A stretch of 64,000 bases of DNA from the IMG/VR virus record IMGVR_UViG_3300021425_003554; one strand, 5' to 3'. This DNA is from a virus. Lineage: Duplodnaviria > Caudoviricetes. The position numbers were made by a program, and so were the translations under genes. Of this stretch, positions 48,749 to 64,000 are shown piece after piece. Position 1 is the first letter of the stretch; each line of letters opens with the position of its first letter. The notes under the pieces were generated by a model. The model was not told the origin of the DNA, did no database searches, and worked only from the letters and a program-made list of their open reading frames with translations.

Positions 48749-50305
48749 TTATAAGAATTTTTCTTTTACTTTCTTAATATAATCATCCAAAAAAACTTTT
48801 TTATAATTCTTATACTCATCTGACAGTAGATCTGTATGATATTTTGTCAATGCTTCTTTATACGATATACCATAATTTAAAATCGAAGCCATACGCCAAG
48901 CATCTAATTTAGATTTATTATTTGTTCTAGCGTATTCGTTCCATTGTCTACTTAACCTGTCTGTCATAAAACTGTCCCAGTGTTCGTTCTTCCAAGCATC
49001 TCCGTTTCTACCGGGCATATTATTTTCAAATACATCGTAACCGTAATCTTTGTAATTCCTATCAAACTCACTTGAAAAACTTCTGGACTTACCTCTGTTT
49101 CTGACTATGCTTAGGCTATGCCATGTATAACTGTCTAATCCTATTGTACCATCCAACAATTCTTTATTATTTTGTTCAATGGTGTCTATTGTTTCATGAG
49201 GTAATCCCACAACAAAATTTCCGTGTAGGTGTATGTCATTGTGCCATTCTTTCTTCATGAGAGACAACGCTTTTATTGTTTTTTCTTTACCCAAACCTTT
49301 TCCGATTGCTTTAGATGAGGGATCGTGTAAACTTTCTATTCCAAAATTGGCGAAACGTAATCCAACCTTTTTTAACAACGGTATTTGTTTTTCTTGATGT
49401 GCATGAACTAGATCTAATCTAATATATGCAGTCAAATTTAATTCAAGTTTGAGATCGTCAACAACATCTGCAAGTGTTTGTAATTTTTCAGTTGTTTCAT
49501 TAAAAGTATCACACAAGACAAAATAATTAGTAACTCCCCATGTGTCGTAATTAAATTTAAGTTCTTCCTTAATACTATTTTTACTTCTTAGATATCTATG
49601 TTCTTTTGGATTTTTTCCTAACAGAGGATATGAACAAAATTTACATTTGAATCTACAACCTCTGCTTAATTCTAAAGGTAATGTTTCGTTTGGAAGTATT
49701 ACATCGTTTTTTGAAAACATGGGTGGACAATTATGAAAATCATATAATAAACCTAAAGGATCTCCGGGTAATATTTTTTCAACAGGATTTGATTTATTTG
49801 ATTTACAATTATTTAAAAATTGAATCATAGAACTTTCACCAAAACCTTTTATCCAGTAATCAATAAAGTTAAAAGGCAAATTTCCAAAAATGTTATAAAT
49901 GGCGACAGACCCGGAACTGTGTCCTCCTAACAATATTTTTAGATTTGGATGATTTTTTTTGATGTATGTAAAAAGTTTATAAAAACAATTGAACCATTTG
50001 GCATCTGAATATTGTCCGGTACCTTCATATGTGATGCTATCATTTATTGTGACTTTTTTGTGATCAAAGTCTAAACTAGAAAACCAAGTTCCGCTAATTG
50101 CTAAAGCATAAGTTTCTTTGGTAATTTGCTTGGATAAGATATTGAAAAAAGATACCGGGTCTTTATCTACAAAATAACTGAAATGATCTAAAACATTTAC
50201 AGAGTGTCCGTGCTGTCTGCAAGATGAGGCTATCCTATATGCACCAGCAGTTTTTGATGGTACATCGTAAGTTGGTAAATCATTTAAAATTATAAGATTT
50301 GTCAT
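48749..50305 (-). CDS. Cobalamin-dependent (class B-like) radical SAM enzyme
   Basis: N-terminal B12-binding-like region (GAYRIAS, ILLGG); SRGCRFKCKFC; FGIESL; NFVVGLP.E. Confidence 0.85.
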   Translation of the reverse strand: MTNLIILNDLPTYDVPSKTAGAYRIASSCRQHGHSVNVLDHFSYFVDKDPVSFFNILSKQITKETYALAISGTWFSSLDFDHKKVTINDSITYEGTGQYSDAKWFNCFYKLFTYIKKNHPNLKILLGGHSSGSVAIYNIFGNLPFNFIDYWIKGFGESSMIQFLNNCKSNKSNPVEKILPGDPLGLLYDFHNCPPMFSKNDVILPNETLPLELSRGCRFKCKFCSYPLLGKNPKEHRYLRSKNSIKEELKFNYDTWGVTNYFVLCDTFNETTEKLQTLADVVDDLKLELNLTAYIRLDLVHAHQEKQIPLLKKVGLRFANFGIESLHDPSSKAIGKGLGKEKTIKALSLMKKEWHNDIHLHGNFVVGLPHETIDTIEQNNKELLDGTIGLDSYTWHSLSIVRNRGKSRSFSSEFDRNYKDYGYDVFENNMPGRNGDAWKNEHWDSFMTDRLSRQWNEYARTNNKSKLDAWRMASILNYGISYKEALTKYHTDLLSDEYKNYKKVFLDDYIKKVKEKFL

Positions 50306-50419
50306 TGATTATCTTTTTACTTATTGCGTAAAATTTACAAAAAATTATTTTAGCGAAGCGTAAATTAGCGTAAGATTTATTTGACCTTTATGTTTTTACC
50401 ATTAAATATATCTATCAAG

Positions 50420-51706
50420 ATGAATCAAAATCAGCACAGACGCGAACTAAACATCTCTTCGAAGCCAGGAAAACTTTGCGAGTTGCCATGGTCGGGTCTC
50501 ACGATCAACCCGGACGGAAATTTGGTTGTGTGCTGTTCTTCCGTAAATCCTATAATCAAACATATTAGCAAGGTCGACGACTTACAAAAGTTTTTTACTA
50601 ACTCCATCGAGTATAATAGTATGAGACAGAAATTTAAAAACAACGTATTTCCTGAATATTGTTTCACATGTGAATTTAAAAAAAGTAGAGGACTTTCTGC
50701 ACCCATTGATACCTGGACTGCGGACGTTGTTCCAAACAACAATCCTCCCAAAAACTTATCTAACAAAGATATGCCAATACTGTATTTAGATCTTTCGTTA
50801 TCAAATGTTTGCAATCAAACTTGTATCATGTGTGGTCCTCTTTATAGTTCAAAATGGTATGATCTAGAAAAAAAGATACAAAAGGAACAAACAGAAATAG
50901 AAACCATGGAAGGCAGAGAAGGAAGACTGATCGAGGGAAAGAGATTGTTCATGAACAAATTGTCCGAAGAAGATTTCCAAAAAATTTTAAAAGTGTTGCC
51001 TACTGTGGAAGTAATACAATTGAAAGGTGGAGAACCGTTGGTAGAAAAAAGAAACTTTATAGTGATGTCCGAAGCGGCCAGGCAAAAAAGACCACCTCGT
51101 ATAGTCATGACCACAAACCTCAGTTTGATATCAAAGGATGCATGGAAAGCCGTTGAAGAATATCCTCGAGGAAAGTTAGGAATCAACATCAGCCTAGACG
51201 GTATAGGTAAGCAATATGAATGGATCAGGGGCGGTGATTATTCTAATACTATGAAAAACATAGAAAGGTTGTGTAAGAGTGGACACAGTATATGTGTACG
51301 TACATCCTTGACGTTACACTCGTCTTTTAACGTTCCGGAACAGATACAAGTAATACATGACAACACAGACATAAGAGAAATGGATATAGGACTTGTGACG
51401 TCGCCCACGTATACTTCTAATCGTTTGATACCTCAACCCATGTTAGAGGAACAAAAATCTCGCACCGCGGATGCAGTAAATCATTATACCCAAAAAGGAA
51501 TGAAGTTTCACGAATTGGAAAATTTTTACAACGTTAGATGTGTTAACACACTGGCGGATGTACTTAAAATGACACAAGGAGAAACGGAAATTTTCTATCA
51601 ACAAAAATTACACCAAGCCAAACTGTGGACTGATTTTTTTAACAAACAACGTGGTATTGCAATACAAGATCATGTTCCGGAATTAAAACGGTTGTTTAAT
51701 TATTAA
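50420..51706 (+). CDS. Radical SAM protein with SPASM/twitch N-terminus
   Basis: CELPW..NPDG..VCC; CNQTCIMC; LKGGEP; SLDG. Confidence 0.9.
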   Translation: MNQNQHRRELNISSKPGKLCELPWSGLTINPDGNLVVCCSSVNPIIKHISKVDDLQKFFTNSIEYNSMRQKFKNNVFPEYCFTCEFKKSRGLSAPIDTWTADVVPNNNPPKNLSNKDMPILYLDLSLSNVCNQTCIMCGPLYSSKWYDLEKKIQKEQTEIETMEGREGRLIEGKRLFMNKLSEEDFQKILKVLPTVEVIQLKGGEPLVEKRNFIVMSEAARQKRPPRIVMTTNLSLISKDAWKAVEEYPRGKLGINISLDGIGKQYEWIRGGDYSNTMKNIERLCKSGHSICVRTSLTLHSSFNVPEQIQVIHDNTDIREMDIGLVTSPTYTSNRLIPQPMLEEQKSRTADAVNHYTQKGMKFHELENFYNVRCVNTLADVLKMTQGETEIFYQQKLHQAKLWTDFFNKQRGIAIQDHVPELKRLFNY

Positions 51707-51725
51707 AAATATTATATAATGAATT

Positions 51726-52271
51726 ATGAAAACAATTAAAACATTTAAAAGAATAGTAACAGGAATCAACGAACAAGGCAAATCAACAGTAATGTCAAAC
51801 GATATTGCCAAGGGAGTTTTAGATTTTGGCGACGACCGACCGTTCCATACGCACACGTATCTCTGGAAAACCAAAAACGAAAAACAAGATTTCACAGGAT
51901 TCAACGATCCAATTGATTCTAATTTCAAAACCTTTCCGGCACCGGGAGGTACAACTTTTTTGGTTGTACAGTTTGATCCACAAGACGACGAAGTACTGAA
52001 AAAATTAAATCCCCAGGACGGTTTTAAAAAAATGAATGCCTTAGAAAATCTTAAGCCTAGCAAGAGACATCCTTATATGCACACAACACCAACTGTTGAT
52101 TATGGATATGTTATTTCTGGAAAAATAAAACTACTGCTCGACGAAGGAGACGAAGAAGTTGAATTATCACAGGGAGATGTTTTAGTACAGCGAGGAGCTC
52201 GCCATGCCTGGTATAATCCTTTTAATGAACCTTGTGTGATAGCATTCACACTAGTCGACGGACAGCAATAA
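51726..52271 (+). CDS. Cupin-2 domain protein
   Basis: MHTTPTVDYGYVISG..GDVLVQRG..HAW.N. Confidence 0.85.
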   Translation: MKTIKTFKRIVTGINEQGKSTVMSNDIAKGVLDFGDDRPFHTHTYLWKTKNEKQDFTGFNDPIDSNFKTFPAPGGTTFLVVQFDPQDDEVLKKLNPQDGFKKMNALENLKPSKRHPYMHTTPTVDYGYVISGKIKLLLDEGDEEVELSQGDVLVQRGARHAWYNPFNEPCVIAFTLVDGQQ

Positions 52272-52276
52272 TTTTT

Positions 52277-53101
52277 TTAGGCAAGTGTGTGTCTGGCATT
52301 CAAACGCCAGAGTAATCGTTCGTGTTTTGGGTCTAGGCTATCTACTGTTCCTCTAGCCGAATGTAGTAAAGAAATATTATCCCACATTAAAAAATCTTTT
52401 TCTTCCCAATGGTGCTCATAAACATAATTTTCGTTTATTGCGTGTTCTTGTAACGTCTTCATGAGTGCATCACTTTTGTCTTGTTCCATTCCCAATATTT
52501 TTCTAATATGACCAAACACAGAAAATAAACAATTTTCACCTGTCGTCCAGTGTGGCATAACCAGTGGATGATATACAGGTTCTCCCCCACCAATTCCTTT
52601 TAGTTCATCCGGATTGGGTACAGCCGCTAGATGATAGTCAGTAGCGTGTTCGTGTACACAAACTTTTCCTGTAATTTTCTTTTTTAAATCTAGGGGAAGA
52701 TCTCTATACACAGCCGATTGATCAGAGAACACAGTTGTTCCACCTTCCTGAGCCACTTTTAATGAATATAAAAAACTATGCGTAGGAGGATTTTGTAAAA
52801 ATGATTGATCGATATGCCAAATCTCTGGACTCAATTGTCCTTTGGTTTTGTCATTTGTGAGCACATATATTTCTGGATGACTCTGCAATGCATTGGTTCT
52901 CCATTTTGCATGTCTGACTGGCTCACCCACTTTTTTTATAATCGATACCAGTTGATCTGCTGAAAGATCAATGTTCTTAAAAATAAGTAATTTATACTGA
53001 TCTTGCAGTTGAACTATCTCGTCAAAGTTCTCGATCATCTCATCATATGATGTTTTAATTTTTACACCGTAACTACTGTTTTCTAAATTTTCAATTTCCA
53101 T
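52277..53101 (-). CDS. TauD/TfdA-family 2OG-Fe(II) dioxygenase
   Basis: WHIDQSF (HxD), GGTTVF, WDN..LLHSAR. Confidence 0.9.
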   Translation of the reverse strand: MEIENLENSSYGVKIKTSYDEMIENFDEIVQLQDQYKLLIFKNIDLSADQLVSIIKKVGEPVRHAKWRTNALQSHPEIYVLTNDKTKGQLSPEIWHIDQSFLQNPPTHSFLYSLKVAQEGGTTVFSDQSAVYRDLPLDLKKKITGKVCVHEHATDYHLAAVPNPDELKGIGGGEPVYHPLVMPHWTTGENCLFSVFGHIRKILGMEQDKSDALMKTLQEHAINENYVYEHHWEEKDFLMWDNISLLHSARGTVDSLDPKHERLLWRLNARHTLA

Positions 53102-53152
53102 ACTCTTATTTAATTACAAAAATAAATGGCTATTAATTTTGTGACTAATTAA

Positions 53153-54157
53153 ATGTGCATCATGATAAATCAACGTTTATTTGACTGGTATAACATAGAT
53201 ACAAGCAAAGATCTTAAGTTTAACTCTTACTGTACTAGACCTTTTGATACTGTTTTAATTGATAAAAACGGTTCCTGTTATCTTTGCGAATGCCAGGCCT
53301 GGTTACCACAGAGTGTTGGTAATATACAAGTACAACCTTTGGAAAAAATTATTACTTCAAACACAGCAAAAATACTTCAGGAATCTATTGCGGACGGATC
53401 GTACCGTTACTGCAATAATCATCAATGCACATTTTTGTTAAAAGACAGAGACCTAGGATGGCCGGAAACAGTACCAAATGTGAAAATAAAAAATATTAGA
53501 TTGGCCATTGATGAAAGTTGTAATTTATTTTGTCCAAGTTGTAGGAACAAACAGATATTTTACAAATCCGGACCCGAACTCAAAAAAAGAATGTCTATAG
53601 CAGATAAGATTATAGATTATTTGAAAAAACAACAGACTAATACAAATGTACACATCGGTAGTGACGGCGATCCTTTCGCAAGTTTGGTCTATAGATATTT
53701 TATAAAAAACACCAAACACCTTGAGCATCTGAAATTTAGCCTTCAAACTAACGGACTGCTTGTTAAAAAAATGTATATAAAAAACAAAGAGATGTTTGAT
53801 AGATTGACTGTGCTAGGCATCAGCATCGATGGTGCCACTAAAAATACATACGAAAAACTTCGACTGGGAGGCAACTTTGAAAAAATTCTAGAGAACCTCG
53901 AATTTATCAAGCACATCAAAGACAAATTTATTTTTAATTTGCACATGGTCGTACAAAAAGACAACTGGCACGAAATGCCTTTGATGTTAGATATCGCTCA
54001 TAGATATGATGTTGATAAAGTTTATTTTAACAAAATACAAAACTGGAACACCGCTCTAAATTTTTCTGAACAACAATTTACAGACATGGAAGAGTTTAAA
54101 AAAATATATTCTAAAATAAAGAAAGATACCAAAAGCCGTTTGTGGGCATTGACCTAA
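53153..54157 (+). CDS. Radical SAM protein with SPASM/twitch N-terminus
   Basis: CTRPF..G.CYLCEC; CNLFCPSC; GDPF; ISIDGA. Confidence 0.9.
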   Translation: MCIMINQRLFDWYNIDTSKDLKFNSYCTRPFDTVLIDKNGSCYLCECQAWLPQSVGNIQVQPLEKIITSNTAKILQESIADGSYRYCNNHQCTFLLKDRDLGWPETVPNVKIKNIRLAIDESCNLFCPSCRNKQIFYKSGPELKKRMSIADKIIDYLKKQQTNTNVHIGSDGDPFASLVYRYFIKNTKHLEHLKFSLQTNGLLVKKMYIKNKEMFDRLTVLGISIDGATKNTYEKLRLGGNFEKILENLEFIKHIKDKFIFNLHMVVQKDNWHEMPLMLDIAHRYDVDKVYFNKIQNWNTALNFSEQQFTDMEEFKKIYSKIKKDTKSRLWALT

Positions 54158-55051: not shown

Positions 55052-55127
55052 TGGTGCCCCAAGTCCGATTCGAACAGACGACCTACTGATTACAAATCAG
55101 TTGCTCTACCAACTGAGCTATTGGGGC
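55052..55127 (-). tRNA. tRNA-Thr(TGT)
   Basis: GCCCCAA/TTGGGGC acceptor, ACTGA-TTTGTAA-TCAGT anticodon arm, encoded CCA. Confidence 0.95.
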
Positions 55128-55723
55128 CAAATACCGTATTCAATTATTTCTGAAATACCTGTATATAGAAAGTATACAGCAAGTATGCTAAAAATCCAAC
55201 GACTAATTTTAAAAATATTTTTGATGGGTAATTTTGTTATTTGATTATAGATTATTTTTGATACAGTCACCAATATTACCAAACCAGCCAAAATACCCAA
55301 ATATACCATTTGAATGTCCTGACTATCGATGATTATGCCTGTAAGAAATATAACCACTTCGACCCCTTCTCGAAACATTATACCAAAAACAGCAAGTCCT
55401 AATAACAAAGAGTTTCCAAAAGGTAAGGCTTTAACGTGCTGGCTGGCACTATGGCAGAACCATGCCACCCAGGCTAGTACAACACCCGTAATGACCCCTA
55501 TAAACCCTTCAAATCGCTCTGTATTTGCGTGATTGCCTAATAACTGGGCAGTTGTAGTGCCCAAAGCAATAGTGGCCAAAATAGACCCTAAAACTGCCCA
55601 TATAATGACTTTTATATGTTTGGGATTGTTGTTGGCCGCTGTGATGGCCAGCACCGCTATCAGCCATGCTTCAAGTCCTTCTCTGGCTATTACAAACGTG
55701 GTTGCTAGTAGAGTGGTAATCAT
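55118..55723 (-). CDS. FTR1-family high-affinity iron permease
   Basis: Two RExxE motifs (REGLE, REGVE); multiple transmembrane helices. Confidence 0.88.
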   Translation of the reverse strand: MITTLLATTFVIAREGLEAWLIAVLAITAANNNPKHIKVIIWAVLGSILATIALGTTTAQLLGNHANTERFEGFIGVITGVVLAWVAWFCHSASQHVKALPFGNSLLLGLAVFGIMFREGVEVVIFLTGIIIDSQDIQMVYLGILAGLVILVTVSKIIYNQITKLPIKNIFKISRWIFSILAVYFLYTGISEIIEYGIWPQ

Positions 55724-57972: not shown

Positions 57973-58578
57973 TTAAATTGTTTCTGGACTTGGTCTCTTT
58001 GTTACTATTTCGTCGGCAAGTCCGTATTCTACTGATTGTTCGGGAGTCATAAAATTATCTCTTTCCATGTCCGCGGCCAACATTTCATAAGTTTTATTTT
58101 TGGTGTTGTGCTTAACATAGATTTCAGTAAGATACTTTTTCATTCTAGATATTTCATTGATGTGTATCTGTAGATCTGTGACTTGTCCTCTTGCTCCGCC
58201 TAATGGTTGATGTATCATGTGTCTTGCGTGTGGCAGAATAAAACGTTTACCGGCCGTGCCTGCTTGGGCTAACAATGATCCCATGGAACAGGCCTGTCCT
58301 AAAACCACAGTTCTTATATCACATCTGATGTATTGCATGGTATCATAAATTGCCATACCGGCTGTAACTGATCCTCCGGGAGAATTGATATACAGTGTAA
58401 TATCTTTGTCTGCTGATTGTGACTCTAGAAATAAAAGTTGTGCTGTTAGCACCGATGCTAGTCTTTCATCAACTACATCGTCCAGCATTATAATTCTATC
58501 TTTTAAAAGACGAGAAAAAATATCATAACTTCTTTCGCCTTTTGATGTTTGTTCAATAACAATTGGTGTAAGTGGCAT
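57973..58578 (-). CDS. clpP: ATP-dependent Clp protease proteolytic subunit
   Basis: [18 protein letters not shown] (Ser), MIHQP (His), ERDNFM (Asp). Confidence 0.97.
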
Positions 58579-58640: not shown

Positions 58641-59492
58641 ATGAAAACAATTATAACCTGTGCTGTAACTGGTGGTAAAACTGATCCAAACTCCACACCA
58701 TACTTGCCAATAACACCGGAACAAATTGCACAATCCTCGTTGGATGCCGCGGCGGCGGGTGCTTCCATAGTACACATACACGTTCGAAATCCAGATAACG
58801 GTAAACCGTCTATGGACAAAGATCTTTACCAAAAAACTGTTGACTTGATAAGAAACAAGAACGAAAATCTTATTATTAATCTCACAACAGGCCCGGGTGC
58901 TGTGTATAAGCCATTAACAAATGATAATTCTGGATTAATGGATGCTCAAACAAGAGTGGAACACATAGATAGTATACGTCCTGATATATGTAGTCTAGAC
59001 TTTAACACCATGATGCAAGATGACGACGGTGTTAGGATAAACTCTATTCCTGTCGTTGCTGAGATGCTTTTGAAAATACAGTCATATGGCACACTTCCGG
59101 AATTTGAAATTTTTGACAGCGGTGATCTCAGAATTGCAAAAAAACTCATTAGTGACGGACTTACGAGCAGACAACCCATATGGCAAATAGTGACGGGAGT
59201 CAAATACGGATGGGAGTCTTCCATCAACACAATTGATTATGCGTTAAAAATTTTACCGGAAGACTCAATTTGGTGTGCTCTGGGAGTAGGCAAGATGTCT
59301 TTGCCTATAGCAGAATATGTTCATCAAAAAGGTGGCCATGTTAGGGTTGGCATGGAAGATAACATCTACCTCGAAAAAAATGTGCTCGCGAAATCAAATG
59401 CAGAGCTAGTAGAACAATGCGTATCTTCGATAGAAAAAACAAATGGCTCTGTGGCTTCCGTCTCTGAAGCAAGAACAATATTAAAAATTTAG
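58641..59492 (+). CDS. Beta-keto acid cleavage enzyme (BKACE / 3-keto-5-aminohexanoate cleavage family, DUF849)
   Basis: IITCAVTG, P.TPEQIA, GASIVHIHVR, LTTG, PEFEIFD, RVGMEDN. Confidence 0.92.
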   Translation: MKTIITCAVTGGKTDPNSTPYLPITPEQIAQSSLDAAAAGASIVHIHVRNPDNGKPSMDKDLYQKTVDLIRNKNENLIINLTTGPGAVYKPLTNDNSGLMDAQTRVEHIDSIRPDICSLDFNTMMQDDDGVRINSIPVVAEMLLKIQSYGTLPEFEIFDSGDLRIAKKLISDGLTSRQPIWQIVTGVKYGWESSINTIDYALKILPEDSIWCALGVGKMSLPIAEYVHQKGGHVRVGMEDNIYLEKNVLAKSNAELVEQCVSSIEKTNGSVASVSEARTILKI

Positions 59493-59546: not shown

Positions 59547-60035
59547 CTAGGCTTTCTTGATTCTATCAAGTAATCCAGGTGAAAATGTTGGTTCGAACTT
59601 TTCGTACACCGTTTTAGTCTTTTCCTTGAACTCTGCTGTTTCTTCCGGGGTAAGCTCGTGAACGTTAACACCCTCTGATTTCAATCTAGCCTTGGCTTCT
59701 TCTCCATCAGCGATCGTTGTTTCACGTTCTTTTCTTCCGGCATCAATTGCGGCCGCTTTTAAAACAGCCTTGACTTCTGGAGATAATTTCTCATAGAAAT
59801 CATTACGCATGATCATGGTTGTTAAGAACAAACTGTGTTTCGTATCAATAACCGATTTGGTCACTTCGTTCTGGTCCAAAGGGTAAACTCTAGAGTAAAC
59901 TCCTTCTCCGCCTTCACATTTTCCTTCTTCGATTGCACCTTTTAGATCTTCTATTTCACAAACGTGTCTATCTGTGACACCTAGTGCTTTGAAGGTTTCT
60001 TGGGCAACCGGGTTTCTGTTAGTTCTAAGTTTCAT
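59547..60035 (-). CDS. dctP: TRAP solute-binding protein-like, C-terminal half
   Basis: MKLRT (conserved Arg), TKHSLF, FYEKLSPEVKAVL..AA, G..VHELTPEE. Confidence 0.8.
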   Translation of the reverse strand: MKLRTNRNPVAQETFKALGVTDRHVCEIEDLKGAIEEGKCEGGEGVYSRVYPLDQNEVTKSVIDTKHSLFLTTMIMRNDFYEKLSPEVKAVLKAAAIDAGRKERETTIADGEEAKARLKSEGVNVHELTPEETAEFKEKTKTVYEKFEPTFSPGLLDRIKKA

Positions 60036-60038
60036 TTA

Positions 60039-60509
60039 TTACGCAGTTAAGTCACCTAGTTTGCTAACTTTTTTGTTAGAAACTACGTTTCTGAAACCAC
60101 CTGAGTAAGTAAATGCCATACCTCTAACGTTAGATTTTTCAGTGATTTTATTTAATAATTCTTCACCTACTTCACCTTCTAACACTCTAGTTGCATGATC
60201 ATGATCTGCAAATATGAAAGGCATTTCTAATGCTAACATATCTTGTTCATAATGCTCTGCTAACCATGTAGTGTACATTTGAGACATTTCAATTTTACCT
60301 TGTTCCATCAAGTCTAATAAGTCGTGTTTAGTAACTAATACACCGTTGTTGTATTTGTCACTGTACTCTCTTAATGTCATGATTTCAACTTCGATTTTTT
60401 CTGCAGTCTGAGCTCTGTTCACGAAATCTTGGAAATCTTTAGCCGCTCTTACGAATAAAGATAAAGGCTCGTGTGCAATAACCCATCTGATTTTAGTTGT
60501 TTTTGTCAT
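60039..60509 (-). CDS. dctP: TRAP solute-binding protein-like, N-terminal half, no signal peptide
   Basis: LEMPFIFADHDHA..VLEGEVG, SGGFR; SD aaggaag; ends in TAA TAA in frame with the C-half ATG. Confidence 0.8.
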   Translation of the reverse strand: MTKTTKIRWVIAHEPLSLFVRAAKDFQDFVNRAQTAEKIEVEIMTLREYSDKYNNGVLVTKHDLLDLMEQGKIEMSQMYTTWLAEHYEQDMLALEMPFIFADHDHATRVLEGEVGEELLNKITEKSNVRGMAFTYSGGFRNVVSNKKVSKLGDLTA

Positions 60510-60637: not shown

Positions 60638-61903
60638 CTATCCTTTGTACTCGCTCAGCATTTTATCATAAAAATTATCAACATCATGATTTGGTTGCCA
60701 ATATTGATCAAATAAGAGGTCCGGTTGTGTTATTTTTAATGCCGGTTGTTGTCCAGCAATCTTATTTTTATACTTGTAATACTCGGTCATCTTAGAATAG
60801 TCGAAAATATATTTTTTAACCAAAGATTTGTGTTTGGTCATGTCTGCTGTTGGAATAAGTGACTTTAAATTAGTATAGGACCACTGCTGGAACTTGTCTG
60901 TGTTGAAAAAAGTATTTTTAGAGAAAAATTTTTGTTTTTCAAAAGATATATGTTCTCCGCTGTTATTGTATAAAAACGGTCGTTGGCAACTGAACTCCCA
61001 TTTGAAATTGAAATATGTCCACCAATACCAATCTGCTATACTAGTGAGATAATCATTGTGTTTGTTTTCAATAATATTATTCGAGAGTTTTTCACAAAAC
61101 CAATCAACGCAGTTTTTTGAAAACTCCGAGATATGCTTGTCAGAAAGATAGTTTTCTGGCAAACTTATTTTATAAAAATTGGTTTTGTTTTCTAGAATTT
61201 GTATCAATGGTTTTTTTATTAGATCCATATTTTTTTGCCAGGATTCGTGGTGAACTCCTTGACGTATAGCCATTTTCATTCTGCTTATGCTGGGACCAAA
61301 CAAGCAGTCGGCTGGGTCTCCGTGTAATAGAATGTACTGATCTAGAAACTCGTTTGTGACTAAAAAGAAAACAGAACTTCGAATTGCTAGTTTTCTGTAA
61401 ATAAATTTCATAAAAAATTCTGGATGTTCAAAAATAGAATCGGTATTACAAATGACCTCTATCATGTCGTGTTCGTTGTTGGGTATGTTTTTCAACAACG
61501 AAACCAATACTGATGTGGAATCAATTCCACCACTCCACATCACTGCCAGTTTCTTGTTGGAGTTCTTGGCCTCGTTGTACAACTCCATGGCTCGTGAATC
61601 ATAAATGTCCTCTAATTTATCATCGATGAATTTCAATTCGGGCATGGCATACAGTGGATTGCTGGGTGCGTTCCATGGATTATTAAAAGTACCCGATCGG
61701 GCTCGCCAGTCTGAAATACCTTGCATTAATTTATAAATCTGACCCCAGTACATACCATAAGGATTTTCTGGATACACAGACCTACTCAAAGGAAGATCAT
61801 ATCCCATGCTTAAAAAATTTGATACTGTATTAGATTTTGCAAATTTGTCTTTGACAGATTTGGGTAATGGAGAATTTTGGAACTTAACGATCTGTAATTT
61901 CAT
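60638..61903 (-). CDS. Asparagine-synthetase-fold ATP pyrophosphatase, paralog A
   Basis: VMWSGGIDST PP-loop; HGDPADCLFGP resembles the SGEGADELFGG motif; no glutaminase domain. Confidence 0.7.
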   Translation of the reverse strand: MKLQIVKFQNSPLPKSVKDKFAKSNTVSNFLSMGYDLPLSRSVYPENPYGMYWGQIYKLMQGISDWRARSGTFNNPWNAPSNPLYAMPELKFIDDKLEDIYDSRAMELYNEAKNSNKKLAVMWSGGIDSTSVLVSLLKNIPNNEHDMIEVICNTDSIFEHPEFFMKFIYRKLAIRSSVFFLVTNEFLDQYILLHGDPADCLFGPSISRMKMAIRQGVHHESWQKNMDLIKKPLIQILENKTNFYKISLPENYLSDKHISEFSKNCVDWFCEKLSNNIIENKHNDYLTSIADWYWWTYFNFKWEFSCQRPFLYNNSGEHISFEKQKFFSKNTFFNTDKFQQWSYTNLKSLIPTADMTKHKSLVKKYIFDYSKMTEYYKYKNKIAGQQPALKITQPDLLFDQYWQPNHDVDNFYDKMLSEYKG

Positions 61904-63808
61904 TTAATTTCTTGCTCAAAAAAAATCTTATATGTTCTATCATGCTGTGCTCTTGGATTAAGTCTTTATATAGATTTGGATTTTTTTGAAAAGAACTCAA
62001 ATTGTCAAATCCGTCTTCTAATAAAAAATATCGATAACGCGGACTCGTTGTGTTTTTTGTTTTTGATGTTTTATCTATCATGTCGTTAATAAAGTCTAGA
62101 ACACAGTCGTTGTTTGATATGTCTATTTTATTAAAAGAGTCGATTAATGATTTTGTAACATATTTTTGGTATTCGTGTAAATCTGCACTATGTCTATCGT
62201 TTAAATTTAGCTCTTGTTCAAATATTTTTTTTAATTCCTCACTATGATCTGGTGTGTCCACTAATAGTTTTAAAAAATTAAAAAATTCTTTTATTCCATT
62301 ATCTTTATCTCTAGTTGAATCTATTTTAAAATTTTTTATTGAATCTAACTGTATTTGAACAATTTCAAAAATTTCTAATATTATTTCTAATACGTCTTTC
62401 AATTTATAGGAAATATCTATGTCAGTTGGTGAAATCATGATACCGGATTCTTTGGCATTATGCAGTGACACTGTTTGCTCTAGACTTTGAATCATGGTAG
62501 TGTTGGCACCATATTTTACACAATTGGTATTGTCTATGTTATCTAATATTATATCTCTATACTCAGTATTATATTTTTTTTGGTAATCTATTGTTTGGGT
62601 TATGTTTAATACCGGATAGAAATATTTTTGCATTATGACAAATTGTACTTGTTTAATAGCAGAAAAATTTGTTGACACCACAACAAATTTATTAGCGGCC
62701 GGGTCTATTAATCCATATAACTCGTTTGACATAATGTTAATTATTACCCTTTATAACGATCCAGAAGCAATCTGGAAGTTTTAGCGACCCTATGATCGTC
62801 TTCATTCCAGGCGTGTCCTACCCACTCGTCGTCATAATAAAAAGGATTTATCGTGCCGTCACTATTCACATTCACAGTTCTCAAAACATTTACCGGAGTT
62901 TTGGTTCCTACTTTTGTTTTTGTACTGAAGTAAATTTCATTGTGATCAAACTCGTACACATATTTTTTTAAATCTATTTTGTGTTGTGATACATCTTTAG
63001 GTATCAAATTTTTTAAATTGGTGTAGGACCATTGCTGGAACTTGTCTGTGTTGAAGAATGTGTTCTTGGCAAATTGCTCTTGATGTCCGTGTGGTATCGA
63101 TTTCTTGTGCATGGGTATTCTTTTGCTATCTTGCTGTAAAGATCTCATATAAAAGAATGGACGTTGGCAACTGAATTCCCACTTGAAGTTGAAGTATTGC
63201 CACCACCAGAAATCTGCAACAGTTGATACATAATCAGATTGTCCGGCCTGTTGTATTGTTTGATTTATCTTGTCATAGTACCATTGATTGAAATCAAAAC
63301 CTAATTGATATGTTGACAGCAAAGGGTGTTTGATGTTTATTTTATGTATGCTGTGTGGTTTTAAATGGATGCCCGATGACTCATAATTTTTAACAGTTTG
63401 ATTATTGCTCGACGGCATATTGGGACCAAACAAGCAGTCGGCTGGGTCTCCGTGTAATAGAATGTACTGATCTAGGAAATCAACATCTAGTTTTATGTCT
63501 ATGTAATTTTTTTGTTTTAACTTGTTACTGATGTGTTTAAAATAAAAATTAACATTCTCATATATCGAGGAAGTTGTCATGATGACCTCTATCATGTCGT
63601 GTTCGTTGTTGGGTATGTTTTTCAACAACGAAACCAATACCGCAGTGGAATCAATTCCACCACTCCACATCACTGCCAGTTTCTTGTTGGAGTTCTTGGC
63701 CTCGTTGTACAACTCCGTGGCTCTCTCGTCCAGCAAGTCACTCATTTTGTCGTTGATGAATTTCAATTCGGGCATGGCATACAGTGGATTGCTGGGTGCG
63801 TTCCATGG
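61291..63808. repeat. Identical DNA blocks shared by the two paralogs, offset 2130 nt
   Basis: 61291-61345=63421-63475; 61452-61510=63582-63640; 61515-61586=63645-63716; 61625-61678=63755-63808. Confidence 0.9.
61884..62732 (-). CDS. Hypothetical protein
   Basis: 282-aa AT-rich ORF between the two paralogs. Confidence 0.6.
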   Translation of the reverse strand: MSNELYGLIDPAANKFVVVSTNFSAIKQVQFVIMQKYFYPVLNITQTIDYQKKYNTEYRDIILDNIDNTNCVKYGANTTMIQSLEQTVSLHNAKESGIMISPTDIDISYKLKDVLEIILEIFEIVQIQLDSIKNFKIDSTRDKDNGIKEFFNFLKLLVDTPDHSEELKKIFEQELNLNDRHSADLHEYQKYVTKSLIDSFNKIDISNNDCVLDFINDMIDKTSKTKNTTSPRYRYFLLEDGFDNLSSFQKNPNLYKDLIQEHSMIEHIRFFLSKKLNEITDR

Positions 63809-64000
63809 CGTGCTGAACGTGCCTCTGCGAGGACGAGTGTCATGAATTCCTAGCAATATCCTCGGAATAAGAATCCAAGCAACGGCAAAATTGTTTTTTT
63901 TCATTTCATTTAGGTATTGTTGGACCTCCCAGTTATCGACCATTCGAGATGATTTAATTTTTTTCACATGATCAACTGGATATTTTTTGCTGTGATAGTT
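62744..64000 (-). CDS. Asparagine-synthetase-fold ATP pyrophosphatase, paralog B (start probably beyond the window)
   Basis: Same SGGIDS and HGDPADCLFGP motifs; frame stays open to the window edge upstream of GTG 63967. Confidence 0.7.
   Translation of the reverse strand, partial: NYHSKKYPVDHVKKIKSSRMVDNWEVQQYLNEMKKNNFAVAWILIPRILLGIHDTRPRRGTFSTPWNAPSNPLYAMPELKFINDKMSDLLDERATELYNEAKNSNKKLAVMWSGGIDSTAVLVSLLKNIPNNEHDMIEVIMTTSSIYENVNFYFKHISNKLKQKNYIDIKLDVDFLDQYILLHGDPADCLFGPNMPSSNNQTVKNYESSGIHLKPHSIHKINIKHPLLSTYQLGFDFNQWYYDKINQTIQQAGQSDYVSTVADFWWWQYFNFKWEFSCQRPFFYMRSLQQDSKRIPMHKKSIPHGHQEQFAKNTFFNTDKFQQWSYTNLKNLIPKDVSQHKIDLKKYVYEFDHNEIYFSTKTKVGTKTPVNVLRTVNVNSDGTINPFYYDDEWVGHAWNEDDHRVAKTSRLLLDRYKG

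Follow-up and report, generated by a model that had tools for sequence, protein, structure and literature searches.

Why a phage should encode asparagine-synthetase-like enzymes, and why part of a transporter should lie beside them, is the question raised by one end of a 64,000-nt stretch of the IMG/VR record IMGVR_UViG_3300021425_003554 (Duplodnaviria; Caudoviricetes). The whole stretch was analysed and is referred to as the window; coordinates are the window's own. It is a fragment of a T4-like jumbo myophage encoding gp15, sheath, TerL, gp32, a UvsX-like protein and DnaB, and its source is a marine jumbo phage, the nearest relative of its terminase being that of Pseudomonas phage PA5oct (56% identity). 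Between 59.5 and 64.0 kb the minus strand has five contiguous open reading frames (ORFs). They encode two stand-alone asparagine-synthetase (Asn-synthetase)-type PP-loop enzymes (PPL-B and PPL-C) on either side of a helper protein (PARTNER), followed by the two halves of a protein related to DctP, a solute-binding protein of tripartite ATP-independent periplasmic (TRAP) transporters. We tentatively read this operon as an ATP-dependent carboxylate-adenylating amidoligase system acting on a small organic or amino acid. Its features are as follows:

62744..64000, minus strand: PPL-B (P0003), stand-alone Asn-synthetase-type PP-loop enzyme, 418 aa, open at the window end; SGGIDS at 63647-63664 and HGDPADCLFGP at 63422-63454
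61884..62732, minus strand: PARTNER (P0002), fast-evolving helper protein of 282 aa, no known fold or family
60638..61903, minus strand: PPL-C (P0001), stand-alone Asn-synthetase-type PP-loop enzyme, 421 aa; SGGIDS at 61517-61534, HGDPADCLFGP at 61292-61324, aromatic motif at 60974-61015
60039..60509, minus strand: N half of the DctP-like protein (P0004), 156 aa; Pfam PF03480 positions 13-134, E = 5e-17
59547..60035, minus strand: C half of the DctP-like protein (P0005), 162 aa; PF03480 positions 138-284, E = 2.5e-25
59526-59499, minus strand: terminator-like hairpin, a 12-bp stem followed by a T run, directly past dctP-C, closing the PPL-PARTNER-PPL-dctP unit
L010:4659-5882, beyond the window end: PPL-A, as found in the relative L010

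The PARTNER ORF overlaps the start of the downstream PPL-C gene by 20 nt, and the hairpin past dctP-C is the only terminator-like hairpin found on the minus strand of the operon region, none being found between PPL-C and dctP-N. Because of this overlap and the sole terminator, PPL-B, PARTNER, PPL-C and both dctP halves likely form one transcription unit, as far as can be judged from sequence. The two dctP halves are separated by a double stop (TAA TAA ATG). By comparison with the near-identical relative L010, the start codon of PPL-B lies about 6 nt (about two codons) past the window end and the full protein has 420 aa. Close relatives (L010-L012 and record G001) further reveal PPL-A (407 aa), another paralog and the third, encoded immediately upstream of PPL-B and just past the window end. 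The window holds the 3′ two-thirds of an operon with the order PPL-A (beyond the window), PPL-B, PARTNER, PPL-C, DctP-N, DctP-C. The initial annotation had described two paralogs of about 420 aa flanking a hypothetical ORF upstream of dctP on the same strand; this layout was recovered in full, except that what had been taken for a tandem pair is a set of three.

PPL-B and PPL-C are 49% identical (BLASTP, E = 2e-114) and share the SGGIDS and HGDPADCLFGP motifs, as initially annotated, along with YFNFKWEFSCQRPF. The SGGIDS PP-loop of both window copies is invariant in an alignment of 41 sequences and in 11 diverse members of the family. The 41-sequence alignment also shows invariant W-SGG-x-DST, G195, P197 and G203 and a set of conserved aromatic residues (W268, W295, Y297, W302 and W341). 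HGDPADCLFGP is the form taken in the window copies by an AsnB-like G(D/E)xxDxLFG motif; distant members have SGEGxDxLFG (e.g. SGEGCDQLFG), which HMMER aligns to positions 109-145 of the Asn_synthase profile. The latter is the canonical second motif of AsnB, equivalent to SGEGSDE(v)FGGY, the residues of which we take to have nucleotide- and Mg-related roles. In searches with Pfam, NCBIfam, PADLOC and functional PHROG models, nothing matched PPLs at threshold, and sequence matches in PDB and Pfam are limited to the PP-loop. Sub-threshold matches to PF00733 were obtained for 11 of the 41 members (best E = 0.0024). Among the operon proteins, the defence-system models of PADLOC gave no match.

The AlphaFold2 model of PPL-C, built from 41 homologs (pLDDT 88, pTM 0.89), was compared with 48,161 solved chains using VIA-align, the query side of the comparison being a predicted structure. 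The best solved match was TsnB9 (Z 11.2, root-mean-square deviation (rmsd) 5.1, 265 residues aligned), followed by human ASNS (Z 10.1, rmsd 4.6, 219 residues), beta-lactam synthetase (Z 9.9, rmsd 3.6, 184 residues) and carbapenam synthetase CarA (Z 8.9, rmsd 4.9, 221 residues), which agrees with the synthetase fold of AsnB type proposed at the outset. Generic PP-loop enzymes (GMPS, NadE, TilS, LarE) reached Z of at most 8.3 and matched the core only. Swiss-Prot models matched by PPL (chyE, McjC and AsnB; for McjC, E = 3e-3 and template modelling (TM) score 0.36) point to the same fold, and in the Atlas the named neighbours of PPL are PF00733 families. AlphaFold DB clusters annotated as "Asparagine synthetase domain-containing protein" matched over residues 10-412 with E = 5.9e-16 and TM 0.74/0.81. 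These bacterial and archaeal proteins (e.g. A0A1F3TQ24) resemble PPLs in being stand-alone, 335-400 aa long and devoid of a glutaminase domain, and share about 20% identity with them; they name the fold and do not explain the function. Some are probably true members of the PPL family, because the cassette is carried by genomes of candidate phyla radiation (CPR) bacteria, Bacteroidota and others.

PPL proteins are 364-432 aa long and their models align from about residue 25 onward to TsnB9 starting only at its residue 162. Their N termini read MKLQ... or M(E)NYH..., with no Cys at position 1. From this alignment and these N termini it follows that PPLs lack the N-terminal nucleophile (Ntn) glutaminase domain, in line with the initial annotation, and no match to a GATase (glutaminase) domain was found among the neighbour genes tested. 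Compared with the AsnB synthetase domain and its relatives (beta-lactam synthetase, carbapenam synthetase, TsnB9, McjC), PPLs share the predicted fold (Z 8.9-11.2), the SGGxDS PP-loop and the second motif G(E/D)xxDxLFG. However, identity is only 10-13%, the glutaminase or pseudo-glutaminase domain is missing, and PPLs stay below the PF00733 threshold. They also differ in having an obligate-looking partner gene, in being phage-borne and tandemly multiplied, and in possessing a conserved N-terminal segment of their own (R69, G71, P76, P88) together with an aromatic-rich motif. Judging from the predicted structure and the motifs rather than from membership in a sequence model, we place PPLs within the AsnB synthetase-domain fold as a branch that is divergent and has no glutaminase; they would be catalytically competent PP-loop ATP pyrophosphatases.

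The paralogs of the window resemble each other in patches. Exact nucleotide blocks of 54, 72, 59, 55 and 23 nt are common to PPL-B and PPL-C (60885-61678 and 63033-63808) and lie over the conserved motifs, while the segments between them are unalignable or less than 40% identical. The same codon is used for 130 of the 190 residues identical in the two proteins, and PPL-A displays the same patchwork. This pattern fits gene conversion among tandem copies, confined to the catalytic blocks and sparing variable segments, which are possibly specificity-determining.

PPLs form a large and mostly viral family. A profile search of 1.84 billion representative proteins retrieved 1,924 clusters at 50% identity with E ≤ 1e-3, of which 946 had E ≤ 1e-30, and at least about 500-550 homologous stretches were confirmed in IMG/VR. 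The recurrence of the family is far beyond chance. Among 50,697 GenBank phage records there was no DNA or protein match. One hundred and four relatives were found in 185,579 prokaryotes (one genome per species), namely in CPR bacteria, Bacteroidota (Aquimarina, Tenacibaculum, Lewinella and relatives), some Proteobacteria, Acidobacteriota, Chloroflexota and Bdellovibrio. Bacterial loci (L252-L314) contain a compact three-gene cassette, either cupin, 127-aa ORF and ligase or 164-aa ORF, ligase and cupin, and a cupin adjoins the PPL gene in 44 of 76 bacterial loci. This cassette occurs in cultured Bacteroidota and others within unrelated, variable flanks, which suggests that it is a mobile unit.

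The ORF between PPL-B and PPL-C, called hypothetical in the initial annotation, is indeed there, although it proved to be a conserved partner protein of the family. When genes neighbouring PPLs were clustered over 78 loci, a recognised PARTNER (family range 179-301 aa) was found directly upstream of 75 of the 108 PPL genes located off contig edges, often overlapping the PPL start. In a large clade the PARTNER-PPL pair is tandemly repeated two or three times, the repeats being at orthologous positions across genomes. PARTNER sequences diverge rapidly: mean column identity in the alignment is 19%, only L8, K27 and Q30 are near-invariant, and there is no conserved Cys/His/Asp triad. In the model (pLDDT 87) a long helical bundle comes after a small alpha/beta domain at the N terminus, and fold searches returned only helical-bundle noise (best Z 7.7) and viral hypothetical proteins, which does not imply a novel fold. 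The predicted complex of PARTNER with PPL-C scored 0.23 against a mark of 0.32, a value that carries no weight for or against binding. We considered whether PARTNER could be the missing glutaminase and dropped the idea, as it has neither an N-terminal Cys nor an Ntn-like fold match, although lack of a match is not proof. We infer instead that PARTNER is a non-catalytic adaptor or specificity subunit.

Other clades have other upstream helpers. A second family, P2, lies beside PPL in further viral clades and in CPR bacteria (Kaiserbacteria, Saccharibacteria and Paceibacterota), and Bacteroidota PPLs are preceded instead by an ORF of 127 or 164 aa. In profile-profile comparisons, no significant similarity to PARTNER emerged for P2, for the N-terminal 230 aa of a 568-aa fused form, for the 247-aa ORF that precedes PPL-A or for the bacterial ORFs of 127 and 164 aa. 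The f4 partner of CPR bacteria is P2 (probability 97%), which was the only similarity detected; the comparisons thus give no proof of a common origin of all partners. A ligase form of 560-576 aa, extended at its N terminus by about 200 aa (L112-L144, e.g. L116:7260-8963), always follows a cupin and belongs to a podovirus-like cluster of structural genes that includes an SU10-type adaptor. The added region may represent a partner fused to the enzyme, although it showed no similarity to one.

The proteins encoded downstream of the ligases are related to TRAP solute-binding proteins (DctP, SiaP, the pyroglutamate-binding DctP6/7). Phage DctP-like proteins match solved TRAP binders with E = 3.5e-34, and a full-length relative scores 64 bits against NF037995 (cut-off 50). 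They keep the position of the arginine that contacts the ligand carboxylate: the arginine of the "SGGyR" strand, YSGGFR in the N half of the window, aligns with that of 4xfe and 4p47. However, they start at the position where the mature solved binders begin and hence have no signal peptide. They further differ from TRAP binders in being split into two genes here and in adjoining an enzyme rather than a permease. The neighbours examined include no recognisable DctQ or DctM; what recurs instead is a small membrane protein of the DUF2061 family (77-87 aa), whose gene lies next to that of the signal-less DctP-like protein, or one gene away from it, in 23 of 80 viral loci (L165, L181, L187, L193, L203, L217, L226, L233 and others). 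In a sister lineage (L014/L034, also sampled as L163/L162) a full-length DctP gene lies upstream of the array, and one N half and two C halves lie downstream; from the latter arrangement the split is old and the C half was duplicated.

Whether DctP belongs with the ligase was asked in both directions. Among 50 PPL lineages (clustered at 60% identity), a component of a TRAP or tripartite tricarboxylate (TTT) transporter lay within 8 kb in 10, either DctP-like, TctC (PF03401) or TctA (PF01970) with a secreted binder. Of the same lineages, a recognised partner occurred in 24, a cupin with a 3-His site in 14, and a DNA polymerase with a DsbA-like gene in about 14. In the reverse direction, 80 viral loci encoding signal-less DctP-like proteins had a PPL gene in the flank in 35 cases, at most three genes away in 32 and immediately adjacent in 15. 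For comparison, our estimate for random placement, which is not a computed null, is a few percent within three genes, given 200-300 genes and one to three PPL copies. Gene orders vary: DUF2061-DctP-PPL, PPL-DUF2061-DctP, DctP-PPL, PPL-PPL-x-PPL-DctP, PPL-DctP-TctC and divergent arrangements. In a FastTree phylogeny of 108 PPL representatives, DctP-linked PPLs require at least 11 state changes, at least eight of them forced by well-supported branches, and are present even in the deepest clade; as one set of loci had been chosen via DctP, the sampling is biased and the tree shows the spread of the linkage, not its frequency. PPL-A, PPL-B and PPL-C group with L013 and L014/L034 in a clade that is linked to DctP. 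Counts of DctP lineages by single linkage at 45% identity were not used, the lineages having collapsed into one cluster. DctP is thus a recurrent and reciprocal accessory of the ligase, not a defining part of the system. Of the module that the initial annotation had proposed, the link to DctP stands in comparative terms; most family members, though, have no DctP nearby, and the commonest third component is a cupin. That annotation had also named two outcomes that would tell against it, a best structural match to an enzyme of simple known function and an unconserved linkage to DctP; both were looked for and neither was found.

Some observations concern the surroundings of the cassette. In the tree, the DNA polymerase context is essentially one derived clade, and a tie of the cassette to DNA replication was considered and rejected on that account. 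The ligase array of the window's lineage and of the next is accompanied by a D-glutamate cyclase (PF07286, E = 9.5e-56) and by a family of about 270 aa; in L010, PPL-A is preceded by the unrelated 247-aa ORF and then, on the other strand, by the D-glutamate cyclase gene (L010:3058-3828). The phage contigs L015, L061, L068, L081, L178 and L180 encode TctA permeases and secreted TctC-like binders, sometimes duplicated, which look like complete parts of tripartite tricarboxylate uptake systems in viruses.

How might these components work together? In the reading that we favour, PPL would bind ATP on its SGGIDS loop and adenylate a carboxylate to give acyl-AMP and pyrophosphate, after which a nitrogen nucleophile would attack the acyl-AMP; such acyl-adenylate and amide chemistry would be expected by analogy with AsnB relatives. 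Because no glutaminase domain or subunit is present, the nucleophile would be free ammonia or else an amine, whether of another molecule or of the activated one itself. The rapidly diverging PARTNER, encoded just upstream, would bind each PPL and either act as its adaptor or confer specificity on it. In the cytoplasm the two-chain DctP-like binder, which has no signal peptide, would most likely capture a small organic or amino acid and hand it over to the ligase. A small-molecule carboxylate as substrate is suggested by the neighbours, DctP together with TctC/TctA giving the family a "carboxylic acid" theme; the linked D-glutamate cyclase, and the conserved arginine and missing signal peptide of DctP, count on the same side. 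A broader and more doubtful proposal is that these systems constitute a widespread, phage-centred cytoplasmic class of "binding-protein-fed" amidoligases, in which a binder devoid of an export signal hands a host carboxylate to a partner-coupled, glutaminase-less ligase of AsnB type, and the phage profits from the resulting amide or ring compound. The binder would be DctP-like, sometimes accompanied by the DUF2061 membrane protein, or by TctC/TctA for uptake; its product might trap a nutrient, serve in signalling or anti-defence, or be a novel metabolite, and tandem gene-converting paralogs could diversify specificity.

Several observations weigh against the small-molecule amidoligase. PF00733 scores of 10.9 bits (G001 copies) and 14.5 bits (a distant member) are below the cut-off of 21, so that membership in the family of Asn synthetases has to be argued from the predicted structure and the motifs. 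In about three quarters of the PPL lineages neither a DctP nor a TTT gene lies within 8 kb, and it is the cupin, not a binding protein, that is the commonest third component both in the family and in bacteria. Co-localisation within accessory-gene islands can, moreover, overstate functional linkage. Finally, the largest PPL clade adjoins a DNA polymerase and a DsbA-like gene, and other clades are found within tail or adaptor gene clusters (gp15, SU10 adaptor), contexts that fit a macromolecular target as well.

Such a target could be a protein. PPL might adenylate a side-chain or C-terminal carboxylate of a virion or host protein and form an amide or isopeptide bond, as in lasso cyclases or diphthamide synthesis, with PARTNER as substrate, scaffold or recognition element. 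Among the Swiss-Prot models the lasso cyclase McjC gave one of the best matches, some clades lie among the tail and adaptor genes just mentioned, and PARTNER shows no conservation of a catalytic kind, diverges rapidly and has been duplicated along with its enzyme; its near-invariant Lys27 could be the acceptor. As regards the lasso peptide system (a cysteine-protease, transglutaminase-like B protein with an RRE, a precursor peptide and the C cyclase), PARTNER lacks a conserved catalytic triad or fold match, the 88-aa gene downstream is DsbA-like, and no protease, RRE or precursor-peptide gene was recognised, small peptide genes not having been searched for. Partner families that cannot be aligned with each other would be odd for a conserved substrate, and the neighbours that recur, namely binding proteins, transporters and cupins, suggest small molecules. 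We consider protein or peptide modification unlikely. Modification of a nucleotide or nucleic acid, in which PPL would activate a base carbonyl or a carboxyl on a (deoxy)nucleotide, tRNA or DNA in the manner of GMP synthetase, TilS or QueC, draws on the largest clade, where the cassette lies just upstream of the DsbA-like gene (88 aa) and a family-B DNA polymerase, with a dCMP-deaminase/HD fusion nearby. GMP synthetase, TilS and NAD synthetase match the PPL core at Z 7-8, a QueC-like PHROG matches the PP-loop weakly, and the many conserved aromatics (W268 to W341, listed above) count on its side. Over the whole length, however, the best structural matches are of AsnB type, not TilS, QueC or GMPS, PPLs have no Zn or Fe-S cysteine motif, the polymerase context is limited to a single clade, and the same cassette occurs in bacteria within unrelated flanks. 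We regard this explanation as quite improbable.

Tailoring of sugars or glycans seems to us less credible still. PPL would then act like the "N-acetyl sugar amidotransferases" (PseA/WbpG/LfnA), placing acetamidino or amide groups on nonulosonic or uronic acids, with DctP binding an acidic sugar as SiaP does and the cupin serving as a sugar isomerase or epimerase. Solved structures related to phage DctP do include sialic-acid binders of SiaP type (E about 1e-21 to 1e-27), a GT4-like glycosyltransferase is present in some PPL loci, and cupins are commonly sugar-nucleotide isomerases. Nevertheless, no nucleotide-sugar pathway genes were recognised beside the cassette, PPLs do not match the NCBIfam models of such amidotransferases, and the 3-His metal site of the cupin is typical of oxygenases or lyases. 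That the paralogs are degenerate or non-enzymatic, either decaying duplicates or structural proteins keeping an ancestral fold, is very improbable indeed. Three copies with a patchwork identity suggestive of ongoing recombination might be read in this way, but the PP-loop and second motif are invariant across the 41 and the 11 diverse members, all frames are intact, and orthologs of each copy are kept in related phages.

Already known here is the enzyme class, unnamed relatives of which carry the automatic label "asparagine synthetase domain" in UniProt. The PPL family as such, its private partners and its tandem multiplication in phages are new, as is the repeated coupling to signal-less transporter binding proteins, DUF2061 and cupin. 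The literature yielded no publication on the family or on phage DctP combined with Asn synthetase, and a pelagimyophage paper does not mention them. Although large, the family is unnamed, and no Pfam, NCBIfam or functional PHROG model covers it. The recurring anatomy of a ligase, a private partner and a cupin or signal-less binder suggests a self-contained small pathway exchanged by phages, CPR bacteria and Bacteroidota. Solving the reaction would extend the chemistry of AsnB and beta-lactam synthetase, explain why phages retain cytoplasmic transporter binding proteins, and give an annotation to the thousands of genes that are now "hypothetical" in viromes from the sea and from fresh water. 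Cultured carriers of the cupin, small ORF and ligase cassette (such as Aquimarina longa, Neolewinella persica and Comamonas phosphati) make the system experimentally approachable.

The window also contains other accessory genes. Adjoining the operon are genes for an FTR1-type iron permease (55118-55723), ClpP (57973-58578) and a beta-keto acid cleavage enzyme (58641-59492; BKACE, E = 1e-84), the last being convergent with dctP. A cluster of four radical-SAM genes occupies 48749-54157; two of the encoded proteins have an N-terminal SPASM-like domain. Among these genes is a cupin (51726-52271), which matches the generic barrel only and was not counted as a component of the system.

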